Below are positions 9,498 to 44,725 of a stretch of 64,000 bases of DNA, piece after piece (position 1 is the stretch's first letter; the number at the start of each line of letters is the position of its first letter). The stretch lies in the IMG/VR virus record IMGVR_UViG_3300021962_009794, one strand, 5' to 3'. Both the position numbers and the translations under genes were made by a program. The stretch comes from a virus. Taxonomy: Duplodnaviria > Heunggongvirae > Uroviricota > Caudoviricetes. Under the pieces are notes generated by a model that was given only the letters and a program-made list of their open reading frames with translations, was not told where the DNA came from and did no database searches.

Positions 9498-9822
9498 AGA
9501 CGAGAACAAAAGATGGTACGCAGATCTACCTGAGTACATTGCACAAGGAGGAACTGTGGAAGAGTGCGAGATGGTTTCCGGTGCCGATGATTGGCTAGAC
9601 TACATCTCGGGAAACCGAGATGCCGTTGTTTTAACTTTATCTGATCAGAATTCGCTATCCGAGAAAATGCTTTTATATGAGAGCGACGAATACGGTGCTA
9701 CTTATATAGCACACACCTACAAGGAAGAAGACGTTAACCAAGTACTTTGGCTTTGTCCAGTTACTGTTTTTGTATTCGGTAACTATCCAAGCACAATTTA
9801 CTATCACGTAATAAAGGAATGA
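9472..9822 (+). CDS. hypothetical protein (no ATG start; TTG at 9472 or internal ATG)
   Basis: ORF in the +1 frame overlapping the previous gene's end; start uncertain. Confidence 0.4.
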   Translation: MRKVIRFYRDENKRWYADLPEYIAQGGTVEECEMVSGADDWLDYISGNRDAVVLTLSDQNSLSEKMLLYESDEYGATYIAHTYKEEDVNQVLWLCPVTVFVFGNYPSTIYYHVIKE

Positions 9823-10961: not shown

Positions 10962-11603
10962 ATGAAAATTATATTAGAAAAAAATCAGAACATATTTTTT
11001 ACGAGTGACACTCATTACAATCACTCAAATATTTGCCGCGCCACTTCTAATTGGCCGGGAGGAAGAGGCACACGAGACTTTCACTCTTTGGGTGAAATGA
11101 ACGATGCTATTGTAAGCGGTATTAACTCAGTTGTTGGACCGGACGATTACCTAGTTCATCTAGGTGATTGGAGCTTTGGTGGATTTGAATCCATTGCGGA
11201 GTTCAGAAAGAAAATAGCTTGCAAGAACGTGATACTATTTTTAGGCAACCACGATCACCACATCCGAAATAACAAGGAGGGCGTACAAGGCCATTTCAAG
11301 CAAGTTTCAAGCTACGATATTATAGATATCCGTAGGCCAGAAGGCAAGGAGATGGGTAAATACCAATTCGTATGCTGTCATTTTCCGATAGCAAGTTGGG
11401 ATGGTATGAATAAGAACGTTCCGCATTTACATGGGCACGTTCATTTACCACCTAAATTAAAAATCCACGAAGGACAGGCAATGGATGTGGGAGTAGATGG
11501 AAACAATCTCGAGCCTTACAGCTTAAATGAGATACTAAAGATTATGAAGGGAAGGCCAGTTAGGCACCTGGTATTACCCCAAGATCATCACTCGGAAGAA
11601 TAA
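10962..11603 (+). CDS. calcineurin-like metallophosphoesterase
   Basis: TSDTHYNH, HLGDW, GNHDHH and GHVH metal-binding motifs in canonical order. Confidence 0.7.
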   Translation: MKIILEKNQNIFFTSDTHYNHSNICRATSNWPGGRGTRDFHSLGEMNDAIVSGINSVVGPDDYLVHLGDWSFGGFESIAEFRKKIACKNVILFLGNHDHHIRNNKEGVQGHFKQVSSYDIIDIRRPEGKEMGKYQFVCCHFPIASWDGMNKNVPHLHGHVHLPPKLKIHEGQAMDVGVDGNNLEPYSLNEILKIMKGRPVRHLVLPQDHHSEE

Positions 11604-11613
11604 AAACAGAAAA

Positions 11614-11787
11614 ATGGTAACGCAAGAAATTTTAGACACATTCGTCTTCACCACAATCGGGGGAGAAAAATTTGGAGTTAATGATCCGACAGCTCACGAT
11701 GAGATTATTGGATATTACCCAACAAGACAAGAAGCTGAGAATGCTTTTAAGGAGTATATTGAAAAAGAAGGGATAATTTTCGAATAA
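11614..11787 (+). CDS. hypothetical small protein (57 aa, MVTQEILDTFVFTTIGGEKFG...)
   Basis: ORF below the track's 60-aa cut-off that fills the gap between two genes; its stop overlaps the next ATG (TAATG). Confidence 0.4.
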   Translation: MVTQEILDTFVFTTIGGEKFGVNDPTAHDEIIGYYPTRQEAENAFKEYIEKEGIIFE

Positions 11788-12236
11788 TGGAAAATGTAAG
11801 AAACGAAGAATACAGCACTTTGAATCCAACACTATTTCTTGTAAGAGGAATACCAGGATCAGGTAAGTCTACTTTCGCAAAGCACATCTGGAACGAGTAT
11901 GCAGTTTGTGAGGCTGATAAGTTTTTTCACAACAAAGAGACTGGTGAATACAACTTTGACGCATCAAGATTGAAAGAAGCTCATGAATGGTGCAGAAACG
12001 AGGTTGAGACTAGAATGAAAGATCACCAGGTTAATCCTCAGTATTATCCAGAGATCGTGGTTTCAAATACATTCACACAAGAATGGGAAATGCAGGCTTA
12101 TATCGATCTTGCCAAAAAATACGGTTATCAAGTCACAACATTAATCGTAGAGAACCGACACGGTAACTCAAATGTCCACAACGTTCCCGAGGAAACGCTG
12201 GATCGTATGAGACAAAGATTCGATGTAAAACTTTAA
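11787..12236 (+). CDS. P-loop polynucleotide-kinase-like kinase
   Basis: LFLVRGIPGSGKSTFAK Walker A at the N-terminus; size and layout like the T4 Pnk kinase domain. Confidence 0.6.
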   Translation: MENVRNEEYSTLNPTLFLVRGIPGSGKSTFAKHIWNEYAVCEADKFFHNKETGEYNFDASRLKEAHEWCRNEVETRMKDHQVNPQYYPEIVVSNTFTQEWEMQAYIDLAKKYGYQVTTLIVENRHGNSNVHNVPEETLDRMRQRFDVKL

Positions 12237-12239
12237 GAA

Positions 12240-13004
12240 ATGGAGGAGAACGAAAAAGTGATACCCATGACACTATCCCAAGCAAGGGAGAAGTTCGGGA
12301 AGGCAAGAAAGGCATTTGAAATCATGATTGATGATACGCCATACGTGGTTTATGATATCGATGGTTATGAGCATCAGAATGGAAAATGGAATGGTACGCC
12401 TGCCACATGGTGGCTTGATTTCTCCTCTCCCGCAGTTAAAGGAGAGATCACTCCGGAGAGGAATTTGGTTCCTTACGTCGATATAGGTGTTAATAGAATT
12501 TGCTGGGAAGTTAGATTCAAGCAAAGTAATTACGCAAAACATAAGTGGGACGAGTGGGACATAAGAAGCTCCGGCCAATGTCAGATTTATGCAAACGGTA
12601 AACTTATATACAGTTTTGGATCACGTGACGTTGCCTATGCCTTAAGCAAAGCACAATATCTGATGGTTAACCTGATGGAGCATCCGTATAACTTTCTAAA
12701 TCCAGAGGGGGAAAGAGGGAGGAAGATATGGTATTATGGTCTTCCTGCCACAGTAGAACCCTCGCATTGTCACGGCGAGATAAGGGTTGCACCTGACTAC
12801 ACCCAAATGGAGCAGGAAAGATGGTGGAAGGAATATAGTATAAGGAAAAAACCTATTGATCTCCCCAAAGAAGGTGAAGAATGGGAAACCGAAAGACAGG
12901 ACAGAGAGATGGAAGAGGAGCGTTTTAGAGAGACCAAAGATTATGGCTTCATTAATCACGGTGATGCACTCTGGGACGGCATGATAAACTGGTTTAGAAG
13001 ATAA
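12240..13004 (+). CDS. hypothetical protein (254 aa)
   Basis: ORF. Confidence 0.55.
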   Translation: MEENEKVIPMTLSQAREKFGKARKAFEIMIDDTPYVVYDIDGYEHQNGKWNGTPATWWLDFSSPAVKGEITPERNLVPYVDIGVNRICWEVRFKQSNYAKHKWDEWDIRSSGQCQIYANGKLIYSFGSRDVAYALSKAQYLMVNLMEHPYNFLNPEGERGRKIWYYGLPATVEPSHCHGEIRVAPDYTQMEQERWWKEYSIRKKPIDLPKEGEEWETERQDREMEEERFRETKDYGFINHGDALWDGMINWFRR

Positions 13005-13005
13005 A

Positions 13006-13449
13006 ATGAAAAAAATGAAAACATATAATTTATTCTTGGACGACTACAGACTTCCTGTTGATTGCTCAAGGTACATGCCCAATCCGGGATTATATAATCT
13101 TAATCAATGGGTTATAGCTAGAAACTACGACGAGTTTGTTAGCTTCATCGAGAAGAATGGTTTACCTGACATGATCTCTTTTGATCACGATCTAGCAGAC
13201 GAGCACTACTCAAATGACATGTATGCAGGTAACGAGGTTTACGATAAGAACTACGAGAAGTTCACAGAGAAAACCGGTTATGATTGCGCTAAGTGGTTGG
13301 TTGACTACTGTATGGATAAAGATCAAGATCTTCCCGAATACATAGTTCATTCAATGAATCCAGCAGGCGGGAAAAATATCTGGCAATATTTAGAGAATTA
13401 TCGAAAATTCAGGGAAGAAGAAGAGTATAAAAAGTATCACGGAGGATAA
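13006..13449 (+). CDS. hypothetical protein (147 aa)
   Basis: ORF. Confidence 0.55.
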   Translation: MKKMKTYNLFLDDYRLPVDCSRYMPNPGLYNLNQWVIARNYDEFVSFIEKNGLPDMISFDHDLADEHYSNDMYAGNEVYDKNYEKFTEKTGYDCAKWLVDYCMDKDQDLPEYIVHSMNPAGGKNIWQYLENYRKFREEEEYKKYHGG

Positions 13450-14195: not shown

Positions 14196-14460
14196 CCCAC
14201 CAGAAATTTTTATTTGCGAGTGCCACTCCACCGAGCATCAGATGGTCTTTTTATATGGAGAAGACGATGATTTCCCTATGTTGTATGCCCACGTGCACCT
14301 CAATAAAAAATCCTTTTTCCAGAGACTCAAATATGCGGTTCAATATCTATTAGGTAGACAATCAAGATTTGGTGCTTTTGAAGAATTTATATTTAATCCG
14401 GATGATGCAGAGAGACTGCAGAAAGCGGTAGATTACCTAAAACAATCCAATGAAGTTTGA
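14185..14460 (+). CDS. hypothetical small protein
   Basis: ORF. Confidence 0.45.
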   Translation: MKNNPPEIFICECHSTEHQMVFLYGEDDDFPMLYAHVHLNKKSFFQRLKYAVQYLLGRQSRFGAFEEFIFNPDDAERLQKAVDYLKQSNEV

Positions 14461-15511
14461 CTTTGATGACATACTTATCCAGCCAGCTGAGATAAGCCAA
14501 ATAGAATCCAGAAAACAGGTAAATGTTTTCTGTGAGGATAATTACCTTCCTCTATTTACCGCTCCGATGGATACAGTGGTCAGCGATGATAATTATAGCT
14601 TCTTCCAGAATTCAGGTATAAGAGTCATAAGGCCAAGAAAAGCACCATCATTTGGTGTTAAGCTTGACAGTGACTTCAACGACTTTTTATCTTTTGGAAA
14701 GGATGAGTTTAAACAAATATTTTTGGATAGTGGAAAAATATCAGTAGCCGAAAAATATTACATTCTCATAGACATTGCAAATGGACACATGCAAAGTTTG
14801 CTAGACATGACTGCAGAGGCTAAATCTCTTTACGGTAACGATCTTATCTTAATGGTCGGCAATGTTGCAAATCCGGAAACTTATAAGCTTTTTTCCGATG
14901 CAGGTGCAGACTACGTTAGAATAGGTATAGGTAACGGAGGTGGATGTTTAACCACAGTACAAACAGGGGTTGGATATCCTATGGCATCTTTGGTGCATGA
15001 GTGCTATCAAATAAGCTGTGAATTAGCATCGCCGGCTAAAATCGTTGCCGACGGGGGATTTAAAAGTTACGCAGACATCATTAAGGCGCTCGCTTTGGGC
15101 GCAGATTATGTTATGCTTGGTTCAATATTGAATAAAGCTTTGGAGAGCGCAGGCGACACCTATTTAGCTAATACGAAGGGGGAAGGCTGGACCGAACCTG
15201 GTGAGAAGATCAATCAATATGCTATGGAGACTGAGAAGCTATTCAAATACGGAACTAAGATGTTTAAGAAGTTCAGAGGTATGAGCACCAAAGAGGCTCA
15301 GAAGTCTATGGGTAAGACTGAGTTAAAGACAAGCGAGGGTGTTAGTCGAATGCAACCGGTTGAATATACATTAGTAGGATGGAGAGATAATTTTGTAAGC
15401 TATCTTAGCTCTGCAATGAGTTACAGTAATGCCTCCTCGCTGAAAGAATTTATAGGAAATGCTAAATGGAACATCATTTCACAGAACTCTCTAAACAGAT
15501 TTAAGAAGTGA
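14450..15511 (+). CDS. IMPDH/GMP-reductase family protein (GMP-reductase-like, no CBS insert)
   Basis: N-terminal FDDILIQPA...LPLFTAPMDTV; GADYVRIGIGNGGGCLTTVQTGVGYP; ADGGFKSYADIIKALALGADYVMLGS. Confidence 0.65.
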   Translation: MKFDFDDILIQPAEISQIESRKQVNVFCEDNYLPLFTAPMDTVVSDDNYSFFQNSGIRVIRPRKAPSFGVKLDSDFNDFLSFGKDEFKQIFLDSGKISVAEKYYILIDIANGHMQSLLDMTAEAKSLYGNDLILMVGNVANPETYKLFSDAGADYVRIGIGNGGGCLTTVQTGVGYPMASLVHECYQISCELASPAKIVADGGFKSYADIIKALALGADYVMLGSILNKALESAGDTYLANTKGEGWTEPGEKINQYAMETEKLFKYGTKMFKKFRGMSTKEAQKSMGKTELKTSEGVSRMQPVEYTLVGWRDNFVSYLSSAMSYSNASSLKEFIGNAKWNIISQNSLNRFKK

Positions 15512-19309: not shown

Positions 19310-20398
19310 ATGGAAAGGAAATTAGCATCCATACAAAGAATCGGAAACATACTTCCCATCGAGGGAGCAGACGCAATAGAAATCGTAACTGTTAACTCTT
19401 GGAAGGTTGTTTCTAAGAAGGGAGAATTTAATGAAGGGGATCTTTGTGTTTATTTCGAAATTGATTCGTTCTTACCTGTGAGAGAAGAATTCGAATTTCT
19501 TAGAAAATCATCTTATAAAAAGATGGGTGATGTCGAAGGATTCAGATTAAAGACAATCAAATTAAGAGGCCAGGTTTCTCAAGGACTTTGTCTTCCACTC
19601 AATATATTGGAAGGTCCAGATGAATTCGTAATCGGTGTCAGCAAGCAGCCTTGGGGAGATCAGCTTCAGATTGGACCTTATGATGACGCTTTTGTTATCG
19701 AGGAAGGTGCTGATGTAACAGAATACCTAGGTGTTCTTAAGTACGAGCCACCAGTTCCAGCAGAACTTGCAGGAAAGGTTAAAGGTCTATTCCCAGGTTT
19801 CATTAGAAAAACGGACGAGGAGAGAATCCAGAACATGACTAAGGAATACGACAGCATGCTTGATAAGCACTATTACGTAACAGAAAAACTCGACGGAAGT
19901 TCAGCTACATATTATTTCAAGGATGGTGTATTTGGCGTGTGTTCAAGAAATTTGGAGCTATTAGAAACAGAGGGAAATACTTTCTGGAAGGTTGCTAGAG
20001 AATTGCTTATCGAAGAGAAATTAAGAAACATAGGGGAGAATTACTCTATCCAAGGTGAGCTTATCGGAGAAGGCGTTCAGGGTAACCCCTACAAAATTAA
20101 AGGTCAAACTGTATTGATCTTTAACATTTTCAACATCGACAAGCAAGAGTATCTTAGTCTTGATGACATGGTTCATTTTCTACACAAAATAAATGTAGAC
20201 GATAAGCCTTTGGAGCTTGTGCCTGTCGTTAATTACGATTACAAATTACCTCCAACAATCGAGGAGATCATCAGATATGCTGACGGTAAATCAAGATTGA
20301 ATGAGGGAACAGATAGAGAGGGTATAGTTATCAGAAATAGAGACAAGAGTATTTCTTTTAAAGCTATATCAAATACGTTTTTATTAAAAGAGAAGTAA
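19310..20398 (+). CDS. second ATP-dependent RNA-ligase-like nucleotidyltransferase
   Basis: Motif I EKLDGSS with no Arg, which points to RNA rather than DNA ligase or capping enzyme; EGIVIRN and SFKAIS motif IV/V-like; N-terminal OB-like domain. Confidence 0.55.
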   Translation: MERKLASIQRIGNILPIEGADAIEIVTVNSWKVVSKKGEFNEGDLCVYFEIDSFLPVREEFEFLRKSSYKKMGDVEGFRLKTIKLRGQVSQGLCLPLNILEGPDEFVIGVSKQPWGDQLQIGPYDDAFVIEEGADVTEYLGVLKYEPPVPAELAGKVKGLFPGFIRKTDEERIQNMTKEYDSMLDKHYYVTEKLDGSSATYYFKDGVFGVCSRNLELLETEGNTFWKVARELLIEEKLRNIGENYSIQGELIGEGVQGNPYKIKGQTVLIFNIFNIDKQEYLSLDDMVHFLHKINVDDKPLELVPVVNYDYKLPPTIEEIIRYADGKSRLNEGTDREGIVIRNRDKSISFKAISNTFLLKEK

Positions 20399-20399
20399 C

Positions 20400-20534
20400 A
20401 TGAAAGGAATTAGTGAGGTTTTTACAACAACGGAGATTACATTATTCTTCGGAGGATTATTTTTAGGTATTTCAATTGGAATGTTTATTGGATACAAGTG
20501 TGCAAAATACTTAGTGGAGAAAGAAGATGAATAA
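20400..20534 (+). CDS. hypothetical small single-TM protein (44 aa)
   Basis: MKGISEVFTTTEITLFFGGLFLGISIGMFIGYKCAKYLVEKEDE fills the gap; below the ORF-track cut-off. Confidence 0.35.
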   Translation: MKGISEVFTTTEITLFFGGLFLGISIGMFIGYKCAKYLVEKEDE

Positions 20535-21087
20535 GAACCTAAAAGATATAAGCGATTGGTTCGAAAGTGAGGAAGGTAAAGCTTCATTGGAGAAGTACGC
20601 GGAAAAACTCAGAAACGATATGAACCATAAAATGGTTTGGATTGATAGGTTTAAGAAGTGGGCTGAACCCGATATGGATGCAGCAATCGAAAAACTTTGT
20701 GCATGGTATGAATCTGACAAGTATCGGGACAGGGAGTATAAGAGAGGATACGAGCCAAGAGAACGACTTCTGTGGTTAGCATTCAACTATGCGGAGGAGC
20801 ATTGCAAAGAGTGTGACGACGAAGAGTATTTGAATGACTTCACAGGTCAAGCATACTACATCGGATCATACGTTATCCAGGTGATGCACGGACAAGGTTC
20901 AGTATTAAGAGTCGATAAACTTAAAGGACCAATCAAACCGAGCAGAAAGGAAAGAATCGCATTAATGATCGAGAGCCGAATAAAATCAGAGTACACTAAG
21001 CATTCAAAGAGTTTACCTGATGATTGGGCTAAGATCGCATCTCACAAAATCTTAGCCTCTTTGGAGGATCTGGAAAACAGTATATGA
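20527..21087 (+). CDS. hypothetical protein (186 aa)
   Basis: ORF. Confidence 0.55.
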   Translation: MNKNLKDISDWFESEEGKASLEKYAEKLRNDMNHKMVWIDRFKKWAEPDMDAAIEKLCAWYESDKYRDREYKRGYEPRERLLWLAFNYAEEHCKECDDEEYLNDFTGQAYYIGSYVIQVMHGQGSVLRVDKLKGPIKPSRKERIALMIESRIKSEYTKHSKSLPDDWAKIASHKILASLEDLENSI

Positions 21088-22118
21088 AAATAATAATCAC
21101 AGGAGGAGCCGGATACATCGGTTCACATACGGCGGTTGAAGCTATCAGAGCAGGACACGAGGTAATTATAATCGATGACCTTTCCAATTCTTCGAGAGAT
21201 TCTATTAATAACATATATAAGGCTTCCGGAAAGATACCTTTATTCTATGAGGCATCGATGTTAAAGAATCCATTAGACATCTACGACCAGATTGGTGAGC
21301 ACGCAAGACATGCAGATGCACTTATACATTTTGCAGCTTTCAAATCTTCACCAGAATCAAAAGAGAATCCGCTTTCTTATTACAGAAACAATGTTGATTC
21401 TCTGATGACTGCGATCAGGCTTTGCGAAATCTTCAGCATAAAGAATTTCATCTTTTCTAGCTCTGCGACAGTTTACGGACATCCTAACTATTTACCGATC
21501 AATGAAGTCCATCCGATATTAAAGGGATCTACTCCTTACGGTTGTTCAAAGATTATGGGAGAATGGATACTGGAAGACTGCACAGCAGTAAAAAATCTAA
21601 AATCTGTAGCTCTAAGATATTTTAATCCAGCAGGAGCAGATCACACATATCTGTTAGGGGAAAGTCCAAAAGGAAAGCCAGGTAATTTGGTACCGATCAT
21701 CACACAGGCAGCTGCTGGGGTTTATGAACAGCCAATCAAAGTTACAGGGGTTGATTACCCAACACCAGATGGATCTGCTATTAGAGATTACATCCACGTA
21801 ACAGATCTAGCCCAAGCACATTTGGCCGCACTGGAGTGGCTAGATAAGCAGGAAATTCACACCTTTGAGACATTCAATATAGGAACAGGTAAAGGCACAT
21901 CTGTTTATGAAATGATAGAAACTTTCGTCATGGACGTTGAGCCAGATCTTATTGTCTGTGAAAAAGCAGATAGAAGACCTGGGGATCCAGCTGAAGTTTG
22001 GTGTGATCCTTCGAAAGCTAAAGAAATTCTAGGATGGGAGGCTAAGCTAACCACCCTTGACATTCTTAAAAGTGCATGGGAATGGGAGAAGAGAGTTGGG
22101 GGTGGCTGGGATATATAA
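21084..22118 (+). CDS. galE: UDP-glucose 4-epimerase / NAD-dependent epimerase
   Basis: MKIIITGGAGYIGSH Rossmann motif; YGCSK catalytic YxxxK; size typical of GalE. Confidence 0.85.
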   Translation: MKIIITGGAGYIGSHTAVEAIRAGHEVIIIDDLSNSSRDSINNIYKASGKIPLFYEASMLKNPLDIYDQIGEHARHADALIHFAAFKSSPESKENPLSYYRNNVDSLMTAIRLCEIFSIKNFIFSSSATVYGHPNYLPINEVHPILKGSTPYGCSKIMGEWILEDCTAVKNLKSVALRYFNPAGADHTYLLGESPKGKPGNLVPIITQAAAGVYEQPIKVTGVDYPTPDGSAIRDYIHVTDLAQAHLAALEWLDKQEIHTFETFNIGTGKGTSVYEMIETFVMDVEPDLIVCEKADRRPGDPAEVWCDPSKAKEILGWEAKLTTLDILKSAWEWEKRVGGGWDI

Positions 22119-22121
22119 TCC

Positions 22122-22763
22122 ATGCAAAATCTTAAACTGTACGAAGAATTTAGCCACCCAAAGGAGGAGGATCTAGCTCTGGAGATTGCTGAATTTTTCG
22201 ATGCGGTAGATATCTTCAAAAGGAGAAGGTATGGTCAAAAATTCAAAGCAAAGCTTGGAAAAAATTACACCCCTGAAAAAATCATAAGTCTAATCGGATC
22301 TTTAAAAGAAAAGAATTACGAGATTGAGTTATATCCTAATATGGACGAAAGAGCTTTAAGAGCTCTTATATCAGCTAGTAATATAGACTATTCAAATCCA
22401 ATAGAAAATCTAGAATATGGCTTAACCATTATAATAGTATCCAACTTCATGAGATACAAATCCTGTATTAATATACACAACGGGATAGTTTCTTATGACG
22501 TTCTGAATAAATCAAGCATGCAAGAAATTGCTCTTAATGAGTTTAATGAGAATAACATCGAAATGTTATTCTGGAATGGTAAGAATATGGTTAATGGAAA
22601 ATTCGAACAGACCGAGATATTCCGCGAAGACGGGATGACAACTCTGATCTTCGAAAGTTACGAAACTTCTGACGGCGAAGAATATGTTATGTCTGTTAGC
22701 GCTACCGGAAGTTTTAATGCTGGATACGATCTGGAGGATATTGAGGACATAGATTTCCTTTAG
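22122..22763 (+). CDS. hypothetical protein with MQNLKLYEEF propeptide-like N-terminus
   Basis: Member of the M-x-x-[IL]-K-L-[FY]-E N-terminal motif family. Confidence 0.55.
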   Translation: MQNLKLYEEFSHPKEEDLALEIAEFFDAVDIFKRRRYGQKFKAKLGKNYTPEKIISLIGSLKEKNYEIELYPNMDERALRALISASNIDYSNPIENLEYGLTIIIVSNFMRYKSCINIHNGIVSYDVLNKSSMQEIALNEFNENNIEMLFWNGKNMVNGKFEQTEIFREDGMTTLIFESYETSDGEEYVMSVSATGSFNAGYDLEDIEDIDFL

Positions 22764-23217
22764 CCTTCATTATAACTATCTGATTCTCTGCGTGTTTTAT
22801 TAGATATTCATTAACACCAGGTACTTTCAATAAATAAGCCCTTTCATAAGCATAACAAAGTGCTTCCTCATCATTACCGTCCATCTCTACCCCATCCATT
22901 AATAATTTTAGATGAAGCGACTCATGTACAATGACCGCACAAATGTCATCTATATCATTAGATCTCATATCTTTAGATGAGATGATGATAGTTCCTTTTT
23001 TTCCGTATCCGCCATAGCAGCTAGAAAAGTTTCCGCCCCAGAATGAAATTGTGTCACAAACTTCCAGAATGTGACTATAATAAGCAGAGTCGACCATTTT
23101 TATTTTATTTAAGGCTGAATCAACTTTAAGATCCCAGAAATCTCCAGCCTTGTCTACTTTGATTTGAGCAGAAGAAACTAAAGGGATAAATAGTAGGAAA
23201 CAAATTAAGTAACGCAT
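22714..23217 (-). CDS. secreted HExxH-motif protein (isolated minus-strand gene)
   Basis: Signal peptide MRYLICFLLFIPLVSSAQ; VIVHESLH motif. Confidence 0.5.
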   Translation of the reverse strand: MRYLICFLLFIPLVSSAQIKVDKAGDFWDLKVDSALNKIKMVDSAYYSHILEVCDTISFWGGNFSSCYGGYGKKGTIIISSKDMRSNDIDDICAVIVHESLHLKLLMDGVEMDGNDEEALCYAYERAYLLKVPGVNEYLIKHAENQIVIMKAKGNLCPQYPPDRIQH

Positions 23218-23226
23218 CTTTTATAT

Positions 23227-23724
23227 ATGGAAAGAAAAAACAATAAACCGAAGAGAAACCAAGTAAAACCGAAAATAGAGCAAAAAAATGACCAAGAGGT
23301 CAGTGATTTAGAGGTAGCTAAAAAGATGCTAAAGATCTACCAAAGTGCAGCAGATAGAAAATTAGAATTTAATTTATCATTTGAATCAGTTAAAAAACTA
23401 CTAAGCTACCAAACCTGCTATTACACCAATAAAAAATTCGAGGAGGAAGGCAACTATTCCAGAAGCTTTGATCGGGTTGACTCGGCTAAAGGCTATGTAG
23501 AAGGAAATGTCGTTGCTTGCACAGTTGATATAAACGGTAAGAAGAGCAACCTATCATTTGAGGAAATAGAGTGCATTTATAAGAAAATATCTCCATTTAA
23601 AGAGAAATCAGCAAAACCAGCAAAAATAGAGGAGTCTTCCGAGGTTACTGAGGTAACCATTATCCCACAAGAAGAGGTCTCCGAGGGATATATAGAGAAT
23701 GCAGAATCACCTACTGAAATATAA
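23227..23724 (+). CDS. hypothetical protein (165 aa)
   Basis: ORF. Confidence 0.5.
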   Translation: MERKNNKPKRNQVKPKIEQKNDQEVSDLEVAKKMLKIYQSAADRKLEFNLSFESVKKLLSYQTCYYTNKKFEEEGNYSRSFDRVDSAKGYVEGNVVACTVDINGKKSNLSFEEIECIYKKISPFKEKSAKPAKIEESSEVTEVTIIPQEEVSEGYIENAESPTEI

Positions 23725-24496
23725 GAATTGGCTGGCAGAGTCAGAAACTCCGGAGACTTATAACTTAACTCAGGAGGACATCGACTATATTCAGAATAAC
23801 TGTAAAGTATTAAGTGTTCTTAAAAAATCAGGATTATCGGAAGGAATATTCAAACACTTAAATAGTCGCGATTATTTCTATGCGAAGATATCCACAAAAG
23901 ATCTTGAGAAATATATTAAGCTTCTAGAGAAGACAGAGATAGAGTTTGTTCCAAGCTACTTTGAAGAGACAAACAATATCATAATACATTTTACCAGAGA
24001 TCGCAAGCTGGAAATAGGAAAGCACACCTCAGACATATTAGACTCCGGATCATTATCCCACAGAGGAAATACTAGGGAATTTAAAGTAAAATGGAGTGCT
24101 GATAGCAGAGATCAGGTTCTAGAGGTAGTAAATCAATCTATCGAAGAGATCATAAAGGAAATCAAGAAGGTTAGAGTCATGATCCAGGTGGGTAAAAAAA
24201 ATATTCCGGATTCTCTAAAACCAACGATTAAAAAGAGAATATTGGAAAATTATAGAAGTGTGGTTGACTCTTTCTTTTATGAAGGAAAATTACCCGAATT
24301 GGAGGAAACAAATATTGGATGGGTCATAGCGGAAATCTACTCATCAGATAAAACTATACTAAATACAATTTCTGATATAGAGGACAGGGAAACCCTTGAT
24401 TCCATCCTAAGATCGCTAGAAAAGATGGAGGAAACGGATATCGTTAAGATCGTGAAAGCATACGTTAGATCATCCAGAATATTAAAGCATCTCTAA
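23699..24496 (+). CDS. hypothetical protein (265 aa)
   Basis: ORF overlapping the previous gene by 26 nt. Confidence 0.5.
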   Translation: MQNHLLKYKNWLAESETPETYNLTQEDIDYIQNNCKVLSVLKKSGLSEGIFKHLNSRDYFYAKISTKDLEKYIKLLEKTEIEFVPSYFEETNNIIIHFTRDRKLEIGKHTSDILDSGSLSHRGNTREFKVKWSADSRDQVLEVVNQSIEEIIKEIKKVRVMIQVGKKNIPDSLKPTIKKRILENYRSVVDSFFYEGKLPELEETNIGWVIAEIYSSDKTILNTISDIEDRETLDSILRSLEKMEETDIVKIVKAYVRSSRILKHL

Positions 24497-24873
24497 TGAG
24501 GAACATTAAACTATATGAGCTTTGGGATAAGAAGGAAGATGATGGGGTGGAGATGCTGGTTAAAATTCTAGATGATCTAAAACCCACAATAATATCTCAC
24601 TTCAATGCAAGAACGATGGATGTGGATTTCGTTGAGGTTTCTGATCCCCAGCAATTTGTTCTTGAGTATTGGCCTAAATCATTCGACAACAGAATACCAC
24701 AAAGAATCTCATACTACATAGACGATATTGCGGAAACCCTTTCAGAAGAAATTGGGACTAAAATAGATTGGCAGTTCTCACCTAATGGTAACGTTCAAAG
24801 ATTGGAATTCAACCTTGAGAATGAAATTGATCCTAAATACTTCAGCGCCAAAGACCGCATGAGGTTCTCTTAA
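24496..24873 (+). CDS. hypothetical protein with MRNIKLYELW propeptide-like N-terminus
   Basis: Member of the N-terminal motif family. Confidence 0.55.
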   Translation: MRNIKLYELWDKKEDDGVEMLVKILDDLKPTIISHFNARTMDVDFVEVSDPQQFVLEYWPKSFDNRIPQRISYYIDDIAETLSEEIGTKIDWQFSPNGNVQRLEFNLENEIDPKYFSAKDRMRFS

Positions 24874-24943
24874 TCTCAAACAAATCCTCCGATTTATTTT
24901 TTTACCTCGGAATCATTCCTTATTTTTGTCTAAAATATAAGGT

Positions 24944-25309
24944 ATGAGATTCCTATTATCAATTTTTCTTATCACAATCATTGGCTGCACCAAGGCAGCA
25001 ACAACCCACAATGTAAGGGTTATAACATTTGCAGTAGATCAGTCTGGAGACTACGTAAAGCCATCCAACACTGCAATGTATTTAAACAAGACACAATGCG
25101 TTTGTTTTAGCGACTCCGTGTATGGCTACAACACAAATCCAACATTTACTCTCGAAAACGTAAATGACGGAGACGAACTACACATCATTTCCTTCGTTAA
25201 CGCTGGAGAAGAGATTCAATATAAGACTGTAGTTGTCTACGTCGACAATAAAATGATATTGAACATTTCCAATTCTCAGAACATAAACCAAAAAATTAAG
25301 TTAAGATGA
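24944..25309 (+). CDS. putative lipoprotein
   Basis: MRFLLSIFLITIIGC signal peptide plus lipobox. Confidence 0.55.
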   Translation: MRFLLSIFLITIIGCTKAATTHNVRVITFAVDQSGDYVKPSNTAMYLNKTQCVCFSDSVYGYNTNPTFTLENVNDGDELHIISFVNAGEEIQYKTVVVYVDNKMILNISNSQNINQKIKLR

Positions 25310-25899
25310 ACATGCAACAATGGTGCGTAGATCAGCACGCTAAAACAAATCATTGGTACGATACCTATCTGCCATACGAATTCCATCTAAGAATGGTCGC
25401 AAATGTCGCAAAAGATTTTCAACATCTTCTTGACAATGAAGTAGATTATTACACGGGAAAACAAGAAATTGACAAAGGCCAAGATCTAACCTTAACCTTA
25501 CGAACTGCTTGTTTACGAGCTGCTTGGGGTCACGATTTAATTGAAGACACTCGCAATTCTTATAACGATGTTAAGGAAATACTTGGACAAGAAGCTGCAG
25601 ATATTATCTATGCTGTTTCAAACGAGAAAGGAAAGAATCGTAAAGAAAGAGCAAACGACAAATACTACGAGGGAATCCGTAACACTCCAGGTGCGGTCTT
25701 TGTAAAGATGTGTGATCGTATTGCCAACGTCCAGTACTCAAAGATGACCAAGAGTCGTATGTTTGAGATGTATAAGAAAGAAAATACAGAGTTCACAAGA
25801 TCATTGGGTTTCATAGGTGGTGATTCTATTACAGTTGAGTACCCAGGTCACGAATATTACAAAATGTACAAATATCTTATTAACCTTTTTGAAAAATAA
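25306..25899 (+). CDS. HD-domain phosphohydrolase, small-alarmone-hydrolase-like
   Basis: RAAWGHDLIEDT (RelA/SpoT-type HD motif); downstream MCDRIANV. Confidence 0.55.
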   Translation: MNMQQWCVDQHAKTNHWYDTYLPYEFHLRMVANVAKDFQHLLDNEVDYYTGKQEIDKGQDLTLTLRTACLRAAWGHDLIEDTRNSYNDVKEILGQEAADIIYAVSNEKGKNRKERANDKYYEGIRNTPGAVFVKMCDRIANVQYSKMTKSRMFEMYKKENTEFTRSLGFIGGDSITVEYPGHEYYKMYKYLINLFEK

Positions 25900-25901
25900 T
25901 T

Positions 25902-26378
25902 ATGAGCCAACCGTGGTTAAGAGCTAGCATTAAAATAACAAAGCCTATCGTTCTAATAGATATGGATGGGGTTATCTGTGACTTTGACAAAAGAGCAAAG
26001 GAATTAGAAGCACAGGGTATAAAGGGACATAGCCTATTTAAGCACCCGACTGCATACAAAGATCTCGAGCCTATTGAAGGTGCAATAAGTGCATGGGATG
26101 CTTTGCAGGACAAGTACGAGACCTACATTTTAAGTACACCACCTTGGAGCAATCCTGATGCATGGGCAGAGAAAAGAGTTTGGGTAGAAACACATTTAGG
26201 TAAATCTGCCAATAAGAAGCTTATCCTTTGCCATCACAAGGGATTGGTTAAGGGTGATTTTCTTATCGACGACAGAATTGCCAATGGTGTAGCTGATTTC
26301 GAGGGAGAACATATTCATTTCGGAACCGATCAATTTCCGGGATGGAAATCGGTATTGACTTACTTAGGTATAAAATAA
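25902..26378 (+). CDS. HAD-superfamily 5'(3')-deoxyribonucleotidase-like
   Basis: LIDMDGVICDF motif I at the N-terminus, as in NT5C-type deoxynucleotidases. Confidence 0.6.
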   Translation: MSQPWLRASIKITKPIVLIDMDGVICDFDKRAKELEAQGIKGHSLFKHPTAYKDLEPIEGAISAWDALQDKYETYILSTPPWSNPDAWAEKRVWVETHLGKSANKKLILCHHKGLVKGDFLIDDRIANGVADFEGEHIHFGTDQFPGWKSVLTYLGIK

Positions 26379-26379
26379 A

Positions 26380-27114
26380 ATGAGTGATCGATCCATCCAT
26401 TGTCCAGTCTGCAAATCCAAACTAGAGGTAACCCACAGAGACCGTTACGAAGATATGAGCGAACACGTATCAAATCCAAACGGAACACCTTCTATGAAAG
26501 ACGGTTACCAGTGCACTAACGTAGACTGGTGCGAAGCTTCGTATCTGAACTTCACATGGATAAAAGACGGAGATTGCTACACTAATCCTCCGGAGGGTGT
26601 TAGCTGGTCTGAAGCCAATCGACGTTTGGAGAAAGCGAGCGCCTCTGGTATGATGTTCGCTCTCAATTCATGGAACCATTATTACAATCTAGGAAAGAAA
26701 AAGATAGAAGAAAGGAAAATGTCATTTCGTATAGGAAAATATAAGATCGACATAAAGCCTAAAGAGAAGGGCTACAAATATCCTGAGCATAAGCAATATA
26801 TGCCAAGCACATTTCGATGGGGATATGAGATATGGAAAGAGTCAGAGAATAGCAATGGCTTTTATACTTCGGTCATTCCGACACACAGAATGGTACTTCA
26901 CTGCATCGGATCTTTCAAAAGATCATATAAATCTGCTATTTATAATCCAGAGAAAAATAAGAGCTCTATAAAGGATTGCATGGATAGAATAAATTGTACT
27001 CATTGGGGAACTAAGGACGATCGTACATTTGCTAAGATATCTTCATTTCTGATAAGGGTAATGTATCCTAGAAAATGTAAAAAAATTAAAGCAATTTCAA
27101 TAAATTTAAAATAA
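26380..27114 (+). CDS. hypothetical protein with N-terminal Cys cluster
   Basis: ORF; CPVCKS...H motif. Confidence 0.5.
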   Translation: MSDRSIHCPVCKSKLEVTHRDRYEDMSEHVSNPNGTPSMKDGYQCTNVDWCEASYLNFTWIKDGDCYTNPPEGVSWSEANRRLEKASASGMMFALNSWNHYYNLGKKKIEERKMSFRIGKYKIDIKPKEKGYKYPEHKQYMPSTFRWGYEIWKESENSNGFYTSVIPTHRMVLHCIGSFKRSYKSAIYNPEKNKSSIKDCMDRINCTHWGTKDDRTFAKISSFLIRVMYPRKCKKIKAISINLK

Positions 27115-27116
27115 TT

Positions 27117-27485
27117 ATGGGACCAAAAGGAAACGTCTGGATAAAGACAACATTCGAGGCCACTAAGATTTGGCCAAATCCCCAGTTCAATTTTTTGACA
27201 GGTGAGGAAATCAATCTGGAAAAAGAATACAAAGAGGCATTGGCCGGAAAGATGGTCACTGTTATGGACATTGCTAATGATGACAGTGGTTATTTAGTTC
27301 TGGGAAAGACCAAGGACGGCGGGGATTTTCTTTGGATGATCGAAAAGGAAGATACGAGAGGATTTATTCCGATCATCAAAAAGAATGGCATTCTAATGCC
27401 AGCTGATTTGAGTCCGATTGAAGAGTTTAAATACATGGCGGAACATTACTCCAGAATGAGTGAAAACTTTAAAACAGAAGAATGA
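27117..27485 (+). CDS. hypothetical protein (122 aa)
   Basis: ORF. Confidence 0.5.
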   Translation: MGPKGNVWIKTTFEATKIWPNPQFNFLTGEEINLEKEYKEALAGKMVTVMDIANDDSGYLVLGKTKDGGDFLWMIEKEDTRGFIPIIKKNGILMPADLSPIEEFKYMAEHYSRMSENFKTEE

Positions 27486-27491
27486 TACCGG

Positions 27492-28070
27492 ATGAAACTA
27501 ATATTCTTAGATATAGACGGAGTTCTTAATTGCGAGAACGCTTACCGAAGAGGTGAGTGCCAATACCAGGAATGGATTTGGGAAGACGGTCGCAAGGATC
27601 ACTATCAGCGATTTTGTAAACGCAGCAAAGATCTGCTAAATCAACTCATTGATGCAACTGAAGCGAAAATCGTTATCTCATCTAGTTGGAGAACAAGTGG
27701 TATTGAATTTATGAAGAAAGTTTGGGAGCTTGAAGATATGCACGGTGAAATAATAGGGATCACCCCGTCAATGAGAACTTCGGGAATAAGTATTCCACGA
27801 GGAATGGAAATTCATTACTACTTAGAGCATGACTTGGGGTTCCGTCATATCAACTGGTCAGCTGACGAGCAACAAAAACTAATGGACAAGTCGGGCGTAG
27901 AAAACTACATTATCATTGATGATGACAGTGACATGCTATACGGGCAGCGTAATCACTTCGTCCACGTTCTACCTTCACCCAGAAACAAAGAAGGATTTAA
28001 CCAGAAGTATTACAAAGAAGCTTTATCTAAATTAAGTAAAACAGTAACGGATCTAAATTATAAAAAATGA
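27492..28070 (+). CDS. HAD-superfamily hydrolase/phosphatase
   Basis: MKLIFLDIDGVLN motif I; IIIDDDSD aspartate motif. Confidence 0.55.
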   Translation: MKLIFLDIDGVLNCENAYRRGECQYQEWIWEDGRKDHYQRFCKRSKDLLNQLIDATEAKIVISSSWRTSGIEFMKKVWELEDMHGEIIGITPSMRTSGISIPRGMEIHYYLEHDLGFRHINWSADEQQKLMDKSGVENYIIIDDDSDMLYGQRNHFVHVLPSPRNKEGFNQKYYKEALSKLSKTVTDLNYKK

Positions 28071-28915
28071 AAGACGCACTAGGCGATAGAATGAAAGATT
28101 TCTACGAAGACAGGACAAGAACAAAACTTCCGAGAAGAAGTTACACAATAATCAGAATCGACGGAAAGGCTTTCCATACTTACACAAGAGGTTTAGAAAG
28201 ACCTTTTGATATGTGGCTCATGGAAGACATGGACGCAACTGCAGCTTACCTCTGTAAGAATATTCAGGGTGCTAAATTTGCATACGTTCAGTCAGATGAG
28301 ATCTCAATTCTAATTACAGATTTTGATGATCTAGGAACACACGCTTGGTTTGATAACAATCTACAAAAGATGGCTTCAGTTTCTGCTTCAATGGCAACTG
28401 CCAGATTCAACCAACTTAGATTAATTAGAGAAGCTAAGAACGGGGGAGACTTAGTTAAATCACAGATCTCACAATTTCCGATGGCTATGTTTGACGCCAG
28501 GGTATTTCAAATTCCATTTGCAGCTGAGGTTGAAAACTATTTCATCTGGAGACAGCAAGACGCTACAAGAAACTCTATCAGTTCAGCTGCACAAAGTGTT
28601 TATAGCTCTAAAGAATTACACGGGGTTAAGAGTGACGGTATGCAGGAAATGCTCTTCCAAAAGGGGATCAACTGGAACGATTACAGTCCAAGAGAGAAAA
28701 GAGGATCTGTTATCAGAAAGGTAGAGAAACAATTTGTGAGGAGAGAAACAATGGCAGAGGTAACCGATACTACAGTAGTCATTCCTGAATCTGCTACCTA
28801 TAAAAGAAATGTTTGGGAAGCAGATCCAGAAACACCAATCTTTACACAGAACAGGGAATATCTAAGATCTCTCTTTCCTAATTACGAACAACAAAAAGAG
28901 GAAGAAAATGTTTAG
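28067..28915 (+). CDS. Thg1-like protein (tRNA-His guanylyltransferase family 3'-5' nucleotidyltransferase)
   Basis: RMKDFYEDRTRTKLPRRSYTIIRIDGKAFHTYTRGLERPFD and AYVQSDEISIL follow the Thg1 N-terminal signature. Confidence 0.75.
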   Translation: MKDALGDRMKDFYEDRTRTKLPRRSYTIIRIDGKAFHTYTRGLERPFDMWLMEDMDATAAYLCKNIQGAKFAYVQSDEISILITDFDDLGTHAWFDNNLQKMASVSASMATARFNQLRLIREAKNGGDLVKSQISQFPMAMFDARVFQIPFAAEVENYFIWRQQDATRNSISSAAQSVYSSKELHGVKSDGMQEMLFQKGINWNDYSPREKRGSVIRKVEKQFVRRETMAEVTDTTVVIPESATYKRNVWEADPETPIFTQNREYLRSLFPNYEQQKEEENV

Positions 28916-29165
28916 AGCAAAGTATGTAATAGTTGGAGGAAGCGCAATTGTTTTCTCAGCAGCGATCCAGCATAGCGAAATGGTTGGGTACAATCAAAAA
29001 TGTGATGGAGCAGGCTTTGTTACGTTCTTCACCAAGGTGGATTCGTATGGGGATACTATCATCGCTGCCGATGCTTACGGAGAATCTGTTTCACTGGGTA
29101 TAAAATCCAGAGGAGAAGAAGACTCTATAATTATCACAAGACAAATCTCAAATCCATTCGGATAA
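28908..29165 (+). CDS. hypothetical small protein
   Basis: ORF. Confidence 0.4.
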   Translation: MFRAKYVIVGGSAIVFSAAIQHSEMVGYNQKCDGAGFVTFFTKVDSYGDTIIAADAYGESVSLGIKSRGEEDSIIITRQISNPFG

Positions 29166-44567: not shown

Positions 44568-44642
44568 GGTCCCTTAGCTCAGTTGGTCAGTAGCGGCGGC
44601 CTCATAAGCCGAAGGTCACAGGTTCAAGTCCTGTAGGGACCA
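44568..44642 (+). tRNA. tRNA-Met (anticodon CAU; could be elongator Met or a lysidine-modified Ile2)
   Basis: Hand fold: acceptor GGTCCCT/AGGGACC; anticodon stem GCGGC/GCCGA with loop CTCATAA; T-arm ACAGG-TTCAAGT-CCTGT; discriminator A; no encoded CCA. Confidence 0.65.
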
Positions 44643-44725
44643 CAAAGTGTTGTCACCTTGAGAAAGTGATGTTATATAGTGGCTTTGACTGAGTGCCAAC
44701 AACACTAAGGGGTTCTCTCCCTTAA

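Follow-up and report, generated by a model that had tools for sequence, protein, structure and literature searches.

An Rnl5-family RNA ligase and a bacterial-type Thg1-like protein, with a likely role in RNA repair, encoded by an uncultivated large phage

The 64 kb of tailed-phage DNA analysed here (the window) belongs to a large phage that has not been cultivated, relatives of which, at ~64-84% protein identity, sit on contigs of 340-370 kb. In addition to a heal-and-seal module with an Rnl1-family RNA ligase it carries a second ligase and a Thg1-like protein (TLP). A preliminary description had placed that second ligase, with a K-x-D-G motif and an N-terminal OB-like domain, at 19310-20398 and the TLP at 28067-28915, and had proposed that four or five enzymes of the phage act on tRNA ends.

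The ligase gene (19310-20398, + strand) encodes 362 amino acids, its ATG lying 2 nt past the stop codon of the upstream gene, and the translation contains both peptides quoted earlier, VTEKLDGSSATYY and DREGIVIRNRD. Pfam searches gave matches exceeding the gathering scores to the PHA02142 OB-fold (PF21189, E 5e-40, residues 5-97), which bears out the OB-like domain, and to RNA_ligase (PF09414, E 6e-26, residues 187-352 of 362). The protein also matched PHROG 968 (E 2e-83) and, over model positions 2-341 of 341, the equivalog TIGR02306 (RNA_lig_DRB0094) at 197.8 bits (E 2.1e-58), above the curated NCBIfam cutoff of 151.15 bits, while the structure of NgrRnl (5COT; E 3.4e-77) aligned with both domains (residues 3-98 and 132-362), so that the second K-x-D-G ligase can be assigned to the Rnl5 family. 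It shares the two-domain architecture of NgrRnl and DraRnl, an OB domain followed by a nucleotidyltransferase domain with which the protein ends, without a C-terminal appendage, but differs from NgrRnl in having a 24-residue insertion between the domains.

When active-site residues were mapped from the 5COT alignment, using the roles given in PMC7261155, all nine were found to be identical to those of NgrRnl (R3, D52, K144, R172, K193, D195, E250, E337 and K351). K193 (KLDG, motif I), E250, E337 and K351 are the counterparts of NgrRnl K170, E227, E312 and K326, four residues indispensable to that enzyme (PMC7261155), namely the nucleophilic lysine of motif I (KxDG), the glutamates of motifs III and IV and the lysine of motif V; R3, D52, K144 and R172 correspond to R4, D53, K121 and R149, which contact the ATP gamma-phosphate or the second metal. 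In an alignment of homologs (A1) the four counterparts of essential residues are invariant or nearly so, with K193, G196, E250, E337 and G338, together with D52 and K144, being invariant. Judged from its sequence, this is a full-length Rnl5-family RNA ligase with its catalytic residues intact. Its sequence is divergent, the nearest isolate-phage homolog having only ~48% identity; homologs are found in 349 isolate phage records, where they are already annotated, and phage homologs of Rnl5 were noted earlier by Shuman's group.

Characterised Rnl5 enzymes are Mn2+-dependent and seal 3'-OH/5'-PO4 nicks in duplexes only if the 3'-OH strand is RNA (PMC4408790, PMC5397189). By analogy with the family biochemistry, the phage ligase would be adenylylated on K193 and would then seal 3'-OH/5'-PO4 nicks whose 3'-OH strand is RNA, where the break lies within a duplex.

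The TLP gene (28067-28915, + strand) encodes 282 amino acids and its translation contains TIIRIDGKAFHTYTRGLERPFD and FAYVQSDEISILI. It matched Thg1 (PF04446, E 3e-28, 98.6 bits against a gathering score of 29.2; residues 7-150, profile positions 2-130 of 130), PHROG 4717 (E 2e-87) and the Bacillus thuringiensis TLP (BtTLP, 4KGK, E 1.8e-61, residues 3-265), with weaker matches to eukaryal Thg1 from Candida and human (E 3e-12 to 6e-7). The Thg1-like assignment thus stands, and the profile matches of both proteins are far beyond chance. The HINNLYN anticodon-recognition motif of the eukaryal enzymes is absent, the protein reading RQQDATRNSISS at this position compared to RQVDCHINNLYN in Candida Thg1. 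Loss of the catalytic carboxylates, which would have counted against the assignments, was not seen; D32, D77 and E78 (D30, D75 and E76 in BtTLP; D29, D76 and E77 in human Thg1) are intact and are conserved in 81/81 homologs of the phage clade, as K193 is intact in the ligase.

Residue by residue comparison with BtTLP, in which the roles of the catalytic residues have been described (PMC3701042), showed that E14, R18, R30, S76, K101, R145 and R162 are identical to BtTLP E12, R16, R28, S74, K99, R131 and R147, and that BtTLP H35 and D46 are likewise conserved. K43, which contacts N3 of ATP in BtTLP (K44 in ScThg1), is replaced by Arg45, the phage clade having R at this position in 62/81 and K in 11/81 homologs; the K43A mutation in BtTLP reduced ATP-dependent but not GTP-dependent activation (PMC3701042). 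The substitution appears conservative rather than disqualifying, but the nucleotide preference in the activation step may differ. The match to the helical Thg1C domain (PF14413) fell short of the gathering score (24.0 against 26.3 bits), and the putative Thg1C region can be aligned with BtTLP as far as residue 232, the NWND and KRG motifs being conserved. Other differences from BtTLP (4KGK/4KGM) are a Ser at M158, two insertions of ~12 and ~16 residues, a 17-residue C-terminal tail, and the fact that the window TLP is phage-encoded, by a gene that overlaps a phosphatase gene. By its residues, the protein is a catalytically intact, bacterial-type member of this family of templated 3'-5' RNA polymerases. 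Homologs occur in 162 isolate phage records, databases label them as tRNA-His guanylyltransferase, and the literature searched yielded neither a characterised phage TLP nor activity measurements for a phage Rnl5.

In vitro, TLPs from bacteria and archaea can mend tRNA that is truncated at its 5' end (PMC3061083, PMC3701042), and the activity expected of the family is described in PMC3061083 and PMC4820378. The window TLP would be expected to behave as BtTLP does, using ATP or GTP to activate RNA ends that carry a 5'-monophosphate and adding Watson-Crick-templated nucleotides in the 3'-5' direction, so that a stem lacking 5' nucleotides, for example the acceptor stem of a truncated tRNA, could be restored.

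The overlapping phosphatase gene (27492-28070, + strand) encodes a stand-alone HAD_SAK_2 protein (“Swiss Army Knife” RNA-repair HAD; PF18143, E 7e-22, 78.7 bits against a gathering score of 27.5) with an intact motif I (FLDIDGVLN, DxDG) and a visible acidic motif, IIIDDDSD; no solved structure homologous to it was found by sequence. Its stop codon overlaps the TLP start as ATGA and so the TLP is probably translationally coupled to it. The other healing and sealing genes, also on the + strand, lie upstream and comprise the first ligase, of the Rnl1 family (9819-10958; PF09511, E 2.6e-16, 60.6 bits against a cutoff of 28.3), a calcineurin-like (Metallophos) phosphoesterase which is a candidate for 3'-end healing (10962-11603; PF00149, E 7e-7), a P-loop (AAA_33) polynucleotide-kinase-like protein which is a candidate 5'-OH kinase (11787-12236; PF13671, E 1.3e-13, with a weak match to bacterial Pnkp TIGR04075) and a cREC (cyclic-phosphate-processing receiver) domain protein (13006-13449; PF20274, E 1.4e-22), cREC being predicted to process 2',3'-cyclic phosphates (PMC7824862). 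With Rnl5, HAD_SAK_2 and TLP this makes seven candidate RNA-repair genes, a richer setting than the four or five tRNA-end enzymes first proposed, although that proposal needs amending for the ligase, as the Rnl5 family seals duplex nicks and has no known activity on the ends of tRNAs. The further suggestion of the preliminary description that tRNA repair is central to the infection strategy goes beyond what the sequence can show.

A possible eighth candidate is an HD-domain protein of the small alarmone hydrolase type (SAH/MESH1; 25306-25899, + strand; PHROG 990), which matched 6YVC (8.6e-7), 6Z3N/6Z3O, described as “Small Alarmone Hydrolase” (1e-6), and MESH1 (4e-6 to 2e-4) in the PDB with its HD..ED residues aligned, and TIGR00691 at 3.6e-6, far under the cutoff of that model; it may be an accessory of RNA repair, but its role is uncertain. 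The adjacent gene (25902-26378, + strand) encodes an NT5C-type HAD 5'(3')-nucleotidase-like protein (PF06941, E 4.5e-19) that probably acts in nucleotide metabolism; contigs of related jumbo phages have it together with the TLP region (syntenic in loci L022-L026 and L063), and its membership of the repair set is uncertain. An 85 amino acid ORF overlapping the TLP stop (28908-29165, + strand) is present at 14/82 TLP loci, and elsewhere it immediately precedes the gene for the SAH-like HD protein (L012, L013, L029, L031 and L042); it gave no significant family match in the profile search. RlaP, a CCA-adding enzyme and RtcB were not found in the 64 kb window.

As far as can be read from the genes, the phage encodes an Rnl5 ligase and a TLP with intact catalytic residues besides its Rnl1/Metallophos/kinase/cREC heal-and-seal module, and we consider it likely that both enzymes have the activities described above and serve the repair of RNA, most probably tRNA, after cleavage by host defence ribonucleases. 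The damaged tRNAs would probably be those of the host or the phage, cut by bacterial defences, and labour may be divided such that Rnl1 mends breaks in loops and Rnl5 breaks in helices, while TLP and the phosphatases restore eroded termini. These are already-known kinds of phage gene; the association of Thg1 with PNK and RNA ligase, and a counter-defence role in phage, have been proposed before (PMC2904730; PMC7824862), an RNA-repair role for phage Thg1 being suggested in 2010 and 2021. The logic, with activities read from the genes alone, is that of the T4 Pnkp-Rnl1 pathway, in which a kinase/phosphoesterase heals and an ATP-dependent ligase seals, and nucleotidyltransferases as auxiliaries that restore lost nucleotides are common to the window, T4 and the jumbo-phage repertoire. 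The repertoire listed for jumbo phages by Iyer et al. 2021 (PMC7824862) includes cREC, HAD-SAK, calcineurin-like and Thg1 proteins, all of which are in the window. A T4-type Pnkp/Rnl1 architecture was considered and rejected, as Rnl1 is present but there is no fused kinase-HAD Pnkp, the window having separate AAA_33 kinase and Metallophos proteins instead; a further difference from both T4 and the jumbo-phage repertoire is that the window has two ligases, one from the Rnl1 and one from the Rnl5 family.

In favour of the repair reading, no terminator-like sites were found on the + strand between 16 and 31.5 kb. Counting against it, the repair genes are dispersed within the window, Rnl5 being ~8.3 kb from Rnl1 and ~7.7 kb from TLP with unrelated genes (for example, an NAD-dependent epimerase) between it and the other repair genes. 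This separation from the Rnl1 module is consistent with Rnl5 acting outside RNA repair, on DNA-containing substrates in phage replication, recombination or repair, such as nicks with RNA on the 3'-OH side at ribonucleotide-terminated or RNA-primed breaks. For DraRnl and NgrRnl the 5'-PO4 strand and the template strand can indeed be DNA (PMC4408790), and the physiological substrate of Rnl5 enzymes has been termed “uncharted”, with the sole in vivo phenotype being that loss of DraRnl causes radiation sensitivity and delays reassembly of the DNA genome after irradiation (PMC5397189). The gene neighbourhoods make a DNA role improbable. No replication genes flank Rnl5 in the window, and of the 71 dereplicated viral lineages anchored on Rnl5, 43 had an Rnl1, Metallophos, kinase or cREC gene within 10 kb of it (Rnl1 within 2 kb in 16 and within 100 bp in 6, Metallophos within 2 kb in 17, cREC within 5 kb in 19). 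Related viral contigs often have a tight cassette with Rnl5 between Metallophos and Rnl1 and with cREC and kinase genes nearby, and in many Rnl1 directly follows Rnl5 (+1 to +16 bp). DraRnl, by comparison, is encoded in an operon with a DEDDh-like exonuclease, whereas the phage ligase gene is tied to the Rnl1/Metallophos/cREC/kinase module in relatives also, and Rnl5 genes adjoin TLP genes in bacteria and phages.

For the TLP, 67 dereplicated viral lineages were compared, in which its neighbours included HAD_SAK_2 (15/67, within 10 kb), a CCA-adding-type nucleotidyltransferase (13/67), YqeY (12/67) and Rnl5 (6/67). It was also found inside or beside tRNA gene arrays at ~9/60 loci, one of which (L007) has a tRNA-His gene 24 bp past the TLP stop, and this could mean that the TLP matures or quality-controls the phage's own tRNAs, for example by adding or restoring G-1 on tRNA-His or by fixing 5' ends mis-cut by host RNase P, rather than repairing damage from host defence. 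The database annotation of these genes as tRNA-His guanylyltransferase would agree with this, and TLPs can add G-1 opposite C73 (PMC6471195). Among the phage tRNA-His genes near TLPs, however, 4/6 gave a clean acceptor-stem solution and 4/4 of those encode G at -1, C73 and CCA, so post-transcriptional addition of G-1 would be unneeded in those four. The window TLP is without the eukaryal anticodon-recognition motif, the only tRNA gene of the window (Met) is ~16 kb from it, and its recurrent partners are end-healing enzymes and ligases; bacterial TLPs adjoin Rnl5 (5 loci), an AAA_33 kinase (8), Metallophos (2 clusters of 7) and HD (8) genes. We therefore think it unlikely that the TLP serves maturation of phage tRNAs rather than repair, while giving this some weight.

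Both genes could instead be horizontally acquired passengers with no important role, accessory genes that occur here and there in jumbo phages and persist by drift. Their distribution among isolate phages is patchy, most Rnl5 genes being in phages of Pseudomonas and Aeromonas and most TLP genes in those of Bacillus, and Thg1 is described as only sporadically present in jumbo phages (PMC7824862). Against this, neither protein has lost a catalytic residue, those of the TLP being intact across 81 homologs as well, the TLP start overlaps the stop of its neighbouring gene, and relatives with protein identities as low as ~64% retain the order Rnl1 module, Rnl5, TLP (contigs 3300044624_002978 and 3300044640_002737 are examples; loci L023-L025 and L123/L131), making the passenger explanation highly improbable.

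Within the RNA-repair reading, adjacency of TLP and Rnl5 was found in both gene orders in at least 6 or 7 diverged viral lineages (L028/L127, L033, L040, L064, L137, L147 and L149) and in 5 bacterial genomes that represent three phyla, where 19-80 bp separate the genes. Because of this adjacency we tentatively suggest that the two enzymes may carry out two steps of one pathway together with the 5'-kinase and 3'-phosphoesterase, a “heal-fill-seal” of those breaks in RNA helices (tRNA stems, for instance) at which nucleotides have been lost. In such a pathway the kinase would clean the ends along with the Metallophos or HAD enzymes, the gap would be refilled 3'-5' by TLP with the opposite strand as template, and the remaining nick would be sealed by the duplex-dependent Rnl5. 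An association of Thg1 with an “RNA ligase” was mentioned in 2010 without the ligase family being named (PMC2904730). Most isolate phages have just one of the two genes, which limits how far such a shared pathway can apply, and we regard it as doubtful at present. If it were true, the Rnl5 family would gain its missing physiological substrate, and the TLPs of bacteria and phages would gain their missing biological role.

The ORFs at 19310-20398 (+ strand, 362 aa) and 28067-28915 (+ strand, 282 aa) were both present with the motifs first quoted for them, and the former, which had been put forward as a second RNA ligase with an N-terminal OB-like domain, was placed in the Rnl5 family when the Rnl2, Rnl3 and Rnl5 families were considered. 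The OB-like domain was matched by the Pfam PHA02142 OB-fold (E 5e-40) and the nucleotidyltransferase domain by RNA_ligase (E 6e-26), while PHROG 968 ("RNA ligase") covered the product end to end and the NCBIfam equivalog for the Deinococcus DR_B0094 ligase was passed at 197.8 bits (cutoff 151). Among solved structures the only matches were entries for NgrRnl, the Naegleria gruberi Rnl5 ligase (PDB 5COT), spanning both domains (E 3.4e-77). Using a residue map based on NgrRnl structures and an alanine scan (PMC7261155), the OB-domain residues R4, D53 and K121 of NgrRnl were found to be kept as R3, D52 and K144, and the nucleotidyltransferase residues R149, K170, D172, E227, E312 and K326 were identical (R172, K193, D195, E250, E337 and K351 of the window ligase); K193, G196, E250, E337 and G338 were invariant across the 11 diverse viral homologs aligned. 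The ATG at 19310, 2 nt past the upstream stop, is the true start, since residue 3 of the product is already aligned with NgrRnl. On these comparisons the product is a bona fide Rnl5-family ligase, and apparently an active one.

Rnl5 ligases form a lysyl-AMP intermediate and seal 3'-OH/5'-PO4 duplex nicks when the 3'-OH strand is RNA. Phage homologs were already remarked upon by Shuman's group (PMC4408790), and by tblastn we found Rnl5-type ligases in 349 isolate phage records, chiefly of Pseudomonas and Aeromonas phages and mostly annotated as "RNA ligase", with more than 555 relatives of the window ligase in IMG/VR; no biochemical characterisation of a phage Rnl5 was found in the literature searched. 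In one 319-kb viral contig (L022, 1140-3723) the Rnl5 gene is split into three ORFs, the first holding the N-terminal part (residues 1-172 plus approximately 97 extra amino acids), the second encoding 322 aa with a zinc-finger-like start and the third beginning ...YDIEVDKVHNFYANDILVHN and then, across a typical intein C-terminal splice junction, CQNLTKEY. The break point falls directly after the ATP-binding Arg (R172 of the window protein), and the arrangement resembles a "fractured gene" of the split-intein kind that has a free-standing endonuclease.

The product of 28067-28915 had been described as Thg1-like, and PF04446 was matched across its full profile (E 3e-28); PHROG 4717 was matched too (E 2e-87). 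It is far closer to the Bacillus thuringiensis Thg1-like protein (TLP), BtTLP (PDB 4KGK; E 1.8e-61), than to eukaryal Thg1 enzymes and an archaeal TLP (1e-7 to 1e-12 only). With residue roles taken from the BtTLP structure paper (PMC3701042), the catalytic carboxylates are intact, the metal-binding D30 and D75 and the third carboxylate E76 of BtTLP being D32, D77 and E78 here; E12, R16, R28, H35, D46, S74, K99, R131 and R147 of BtTLP are also identical, and the functional positions mapped from BtTLP are essentially invariant in 81 viral TLP homologs. K43 of BtTLP, which contacts N3 of ATP, is replaced by Arg45, and Arg occupies this position in 62 of the 81 clade members; this conservative clade trait might alter how ATP and GTP are used for activation. 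The window protein has RNSISS in place of the eukaryal HINNLYN motif, and by sequence this is a bacterial-type TLP rather than a tRNA-His-specific Thg1. Both enzyme assignments of the preliminary description were thus confirmed at the level of sequence, and refined to Rnl5 and a bacterial-type TLP.

In the TLP family, ATP or GTP is used to activate a 5'-phosphate, and 5'-truncated tRNAs are extended by templated 3'-5' addition of nucleotides. Homologs were found by tblastn in 162 isolate phage records (Bacillus, Prevotella, Caulobacter, Mycobacterium and jumbo phages), mostly annotated as "tRNA-His guanylyltransferase", and IMG/VR holds at least 121 relatives; no biochemical study of a phage TLP was found in the literature searched. 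The annotation, taken literally, would have these enzymes adding G-1 to tRNA-His, and some TLP genes do lie close to such a tRNA: approximately 9 of 60 loci have the TLP inside or beside a tRNA gene array, some jumbo-phage contigs have it within arrays of 11-30 tRNA genes (L007; L053 and L058 around 9600-10950), and in L007 a tRNA-His gene (10855-10931) begins 24 bp past the TLP stop. Six tRNA-His genes near TLPs were examined, each preceded by ...ATG, and in all four of the six which gave a clean acceptor-stem solution G-1, C73 and CCA were already encoded, so that these tRNAs need no G-1 addition and the name given in databases misleads.

The window carries further candidate RNA-repair genes, all on the + strand. 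Upstream of Rnl5 are an Rnl1-family ligase (9819-10958), a Metallophos phosphoesterase (10962-11603) and an AAA_33 polynucleotide kinase (PNK)-like kinase (11787-12236), followed by a 254-aa ORF (12240-13004) and a gene for a cyclic-phosphate-processing receiver domain protein (cREC; 13006-13449). The 254-aa product had no Pfam, PHROG, NCBIfam or PDB sequence match, is approximately 50% identical in the related jumbo contigs L094, L123, L131 and L111, and may be a further RNA-repair component. A stand-alone HAD_SAK_2 ("Swiss Army Knife" HAD) phosphatase gene (27492-28070), for which a PDB sequence search returned nothing useful, overlaps the TLP start with its own stop by ATGA. Farther upstream of the TLP are genes for an NT5C-type HAD protein and a 197-aa HD protein (25306-25899) closest to small alarmone hydrolases (SAH), with matches to 6YVC, 6Z3N/6Z3O and MESH1 (E 1e-6 to 1e-4) in which the HD..ED motif is aligned. 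Defence toxins of the toxSAS type, CapRel and FaRel2 among them, pyrophosphorylate the 3'-CCA ends of tRNAs, and SAH enzymes are able to oppose these toxins; judged by homology, the HD protein could serve the phage as a counter-defence, with tRNA 3' ends or (p)ppGpp/(p)ppApp as its target. A 244-aa ORF (26380-27114) with an N-terminal CPVC... zinc-ribbon-like motif had no Pfam, PHROG, NCBIfam or PDB match and, in nine related viral loci, shows synteny with the NT5C-like gene and TLP region. An 85-aa ORF (28908-29165) overlaps the TLP stop and has a homolog directly upstream of an SAH-like HD gene in L012, L013, L029, L031 and L042, and this small protein appears to move between the two candidate tRNA-end enzymes. 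Several flanking ORFs had no Pfam, PHROG or NCBIfam match. The multi-enzyme RNA-repair set of the preliminary description therefore stands and exceeds its count of four or five, there being seven candidate genes and possibly eight; a 2021 list of jumbo-phage RNA-repair proteins by Iyer et al. includes Thg1, HAD-SAK, cREC, calcineurin-like phosphoesterases, kinases and several ligase families (PMC7824862).

Rnl5-anchored viral loci were dereplicated to 71 lineages, in 43 of which Rnl1, Metallophos, a kinase or cREC lies within 10 kb of Rnl5. Rnl1 is within 2 kb in 16 of the 71, where chance proximity of single-copy genes in genomes of 100-350 kb would be of the order of 1-4%, and in six it starts no more than 100 bp past the Rnl5 stop, giving Metallophos-Rnl5-Rnl1 cassettes. 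Such cassettes occur near locus position 10000 (L100-L103, L110, L112, L116-L119, L126, L130, L134 and L139), with mostly 1-16 bp, and in some up to approximately 950 bp, from Rnl5 stop to Rnl1 start and with cREC 1.5-3.6 kb upstream, so that many uncultivated viral contigs carry back-to-back ligases of different families. By context, these neighbourhoods strongly indicate that viral Rnl5 is part of RNA heal-and-seal modules, and they argue against a purely DNA-related role.

Unbiased clustering of TLP neighbours in 67 dereplicated viral lineages gave PRPP synthetase (17), NAMPT (16), HAD_SAK_2 within 10 kb (15), a CCA-adding-type nucleotidyltransferase (13), a YqeY/GatB-like protein (12, eight of them within 1.5 kb), NADAR (9) and Rnl5 (6); within the 64-kb window, no CCA-adding enzyme, YqeY, NAMPT, PRPP synthetase, NADAR or Nuc_deoxyri_tr2 was found. 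HAD_SAK_2 and TLP do not form a conserved operon, direct adjacency being seen only in the near relatives L001-L003 and in L019, and as just 15 of the 67 lineages have the two within 10 kb their linkage is loose rather than tight. Among 80 bacterial and archaeal TLP loci, the closest were from Bacteroidota (approximately 60% identity), which hints at this as the host phylum, and the immediate partners of cellular TLPs included an AAA_33 kinase, Metallophos phosphoesterases, an HD protein and Rnl5.

A TLP->Rnl5 pair with a 19-80 bp spacer was found in five cellular genomes of three phyla (two-gene units in L172, L174, L175, L176 (8001-9800) and L228 (3491-5470)), the carriers being a Flavobacterium MAG (1.5-Mb contig), other Bacteroidota, a Hydrocarboniphaga MAG and a Lachnospiraceae MAG; genes flanking the unit in L172 had no Pfam matches. 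The two genes also adjoin, in both orders, in several diverged viral lineages (L028/L127, L033, L040, L064, L137, L147 and L149). This adjacency fits a single heal-fill-seal gap-repair pathway joining TLP and Rnl5, which would need a TLP product with a 5'-monophosphate end, the third step established for Thg1, but we consider such a pathway unlikely. An obligate partnership was rejected, since Rnl5 is found chiefly in Pseudomonas and Aeromonas phages and TLP chiefly in Bacillus phages, and only 6 of the 71 Rnl5 lineages have a TLP within 10 kb; most isolate phages have just one of the two enzymes, and so heal-fill-seal would not be obligate.

The window has a G+C content of 38% and both ORFs lie within a long run of co-directional + strand genes. 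Other annotated genes of the window are a homing endonuclease (6809-7510, +; PHROG 314), an IMPDH/GMP-reductase-like protein (14450-15511, +; PF00478, E 4.5e-41), an NAD-dependent sugar epimerase just downstream of Rnl5 (21084-22118, +; PF01370, E 4e-45) and the sole tRNA gene of the window, tRNA-Met(CAT) (44568-44643, +). A promoter/terminator scan was uninformative, with fewer promoter-like sites than in shuffles and no + strand terminators found between 16 and 31.5 kb. Besides the homing endonuclease, phage hallmarks were a weak major-head match, a virion structural protein and an endolysin. When the stretch at 18-30 kb was compared with isolate phages by megablast no match was obtained, and the best isolate-phage protein matches to both enzymes were at most 49% identical; by these searches the phage is without a close cultured relative. 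IMG/VR contigs identical or near-identical to the window were found (L001-L003 and L083), and relatives with approximately 64-84% protein identity lie on contigs of 340-370 kb, which makes this an uncultivated jumbo-type phage lineage.

Both proteins are intact family members, and gene neighbourhood ties them to enzymes of end healing, to a second ligase and to tRNA-related genes. As in T4, Rnl1 with the kinase, Metallophos and cREC probably repairs loop breaks; Rnl5 would repair breaks inside helices and TLP with HAD_SAK_2 would restore eroded termini, and together the Rnl1 module, Rnl5 and TLP would counter host tRNA-targeting defences. The tRNA-repair reading of the preliminary description is plausible and supported by context, but it went too far in having the ligase act on tRNA ends and in making tRNA repair central to infection.

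Both families are known and annotated in hundreds of phages, and an RNA-repair role has already been proposed: in 2010 Anantharaman, Iyer and Aravind tied Thg1 by gene neighbourhood to polynucleotide kinase and "a RNA ligase", and suggested that a phage Thg1 may serve RNA repair against host defences (PMC2904730). In a TLP review of 2019 there is no mention of a ligase, kinase, operon or phage. What is added here is neighbourhood evidence bearing on the biology of the two families, the work being otherwise an annotation result for a divergent uncultivated jumbo-type phage. Taken together, the close-set Metallophos-Rnl5-Rnl1 cassettes, the pairing of TLP with Rnl5 genes in phages and bacteria and the presence of TLPs within tRNA arrays point to testable candidate substrates for TLP and Rnl5, namely tRNAs broken in their stems or at their termini. 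Should phages indeed rebuild tRNAs which have lost nucleotides, the T4 Pnkp/Rnl1 paradigm would reach beyond simple religation to include the repair of gaps.
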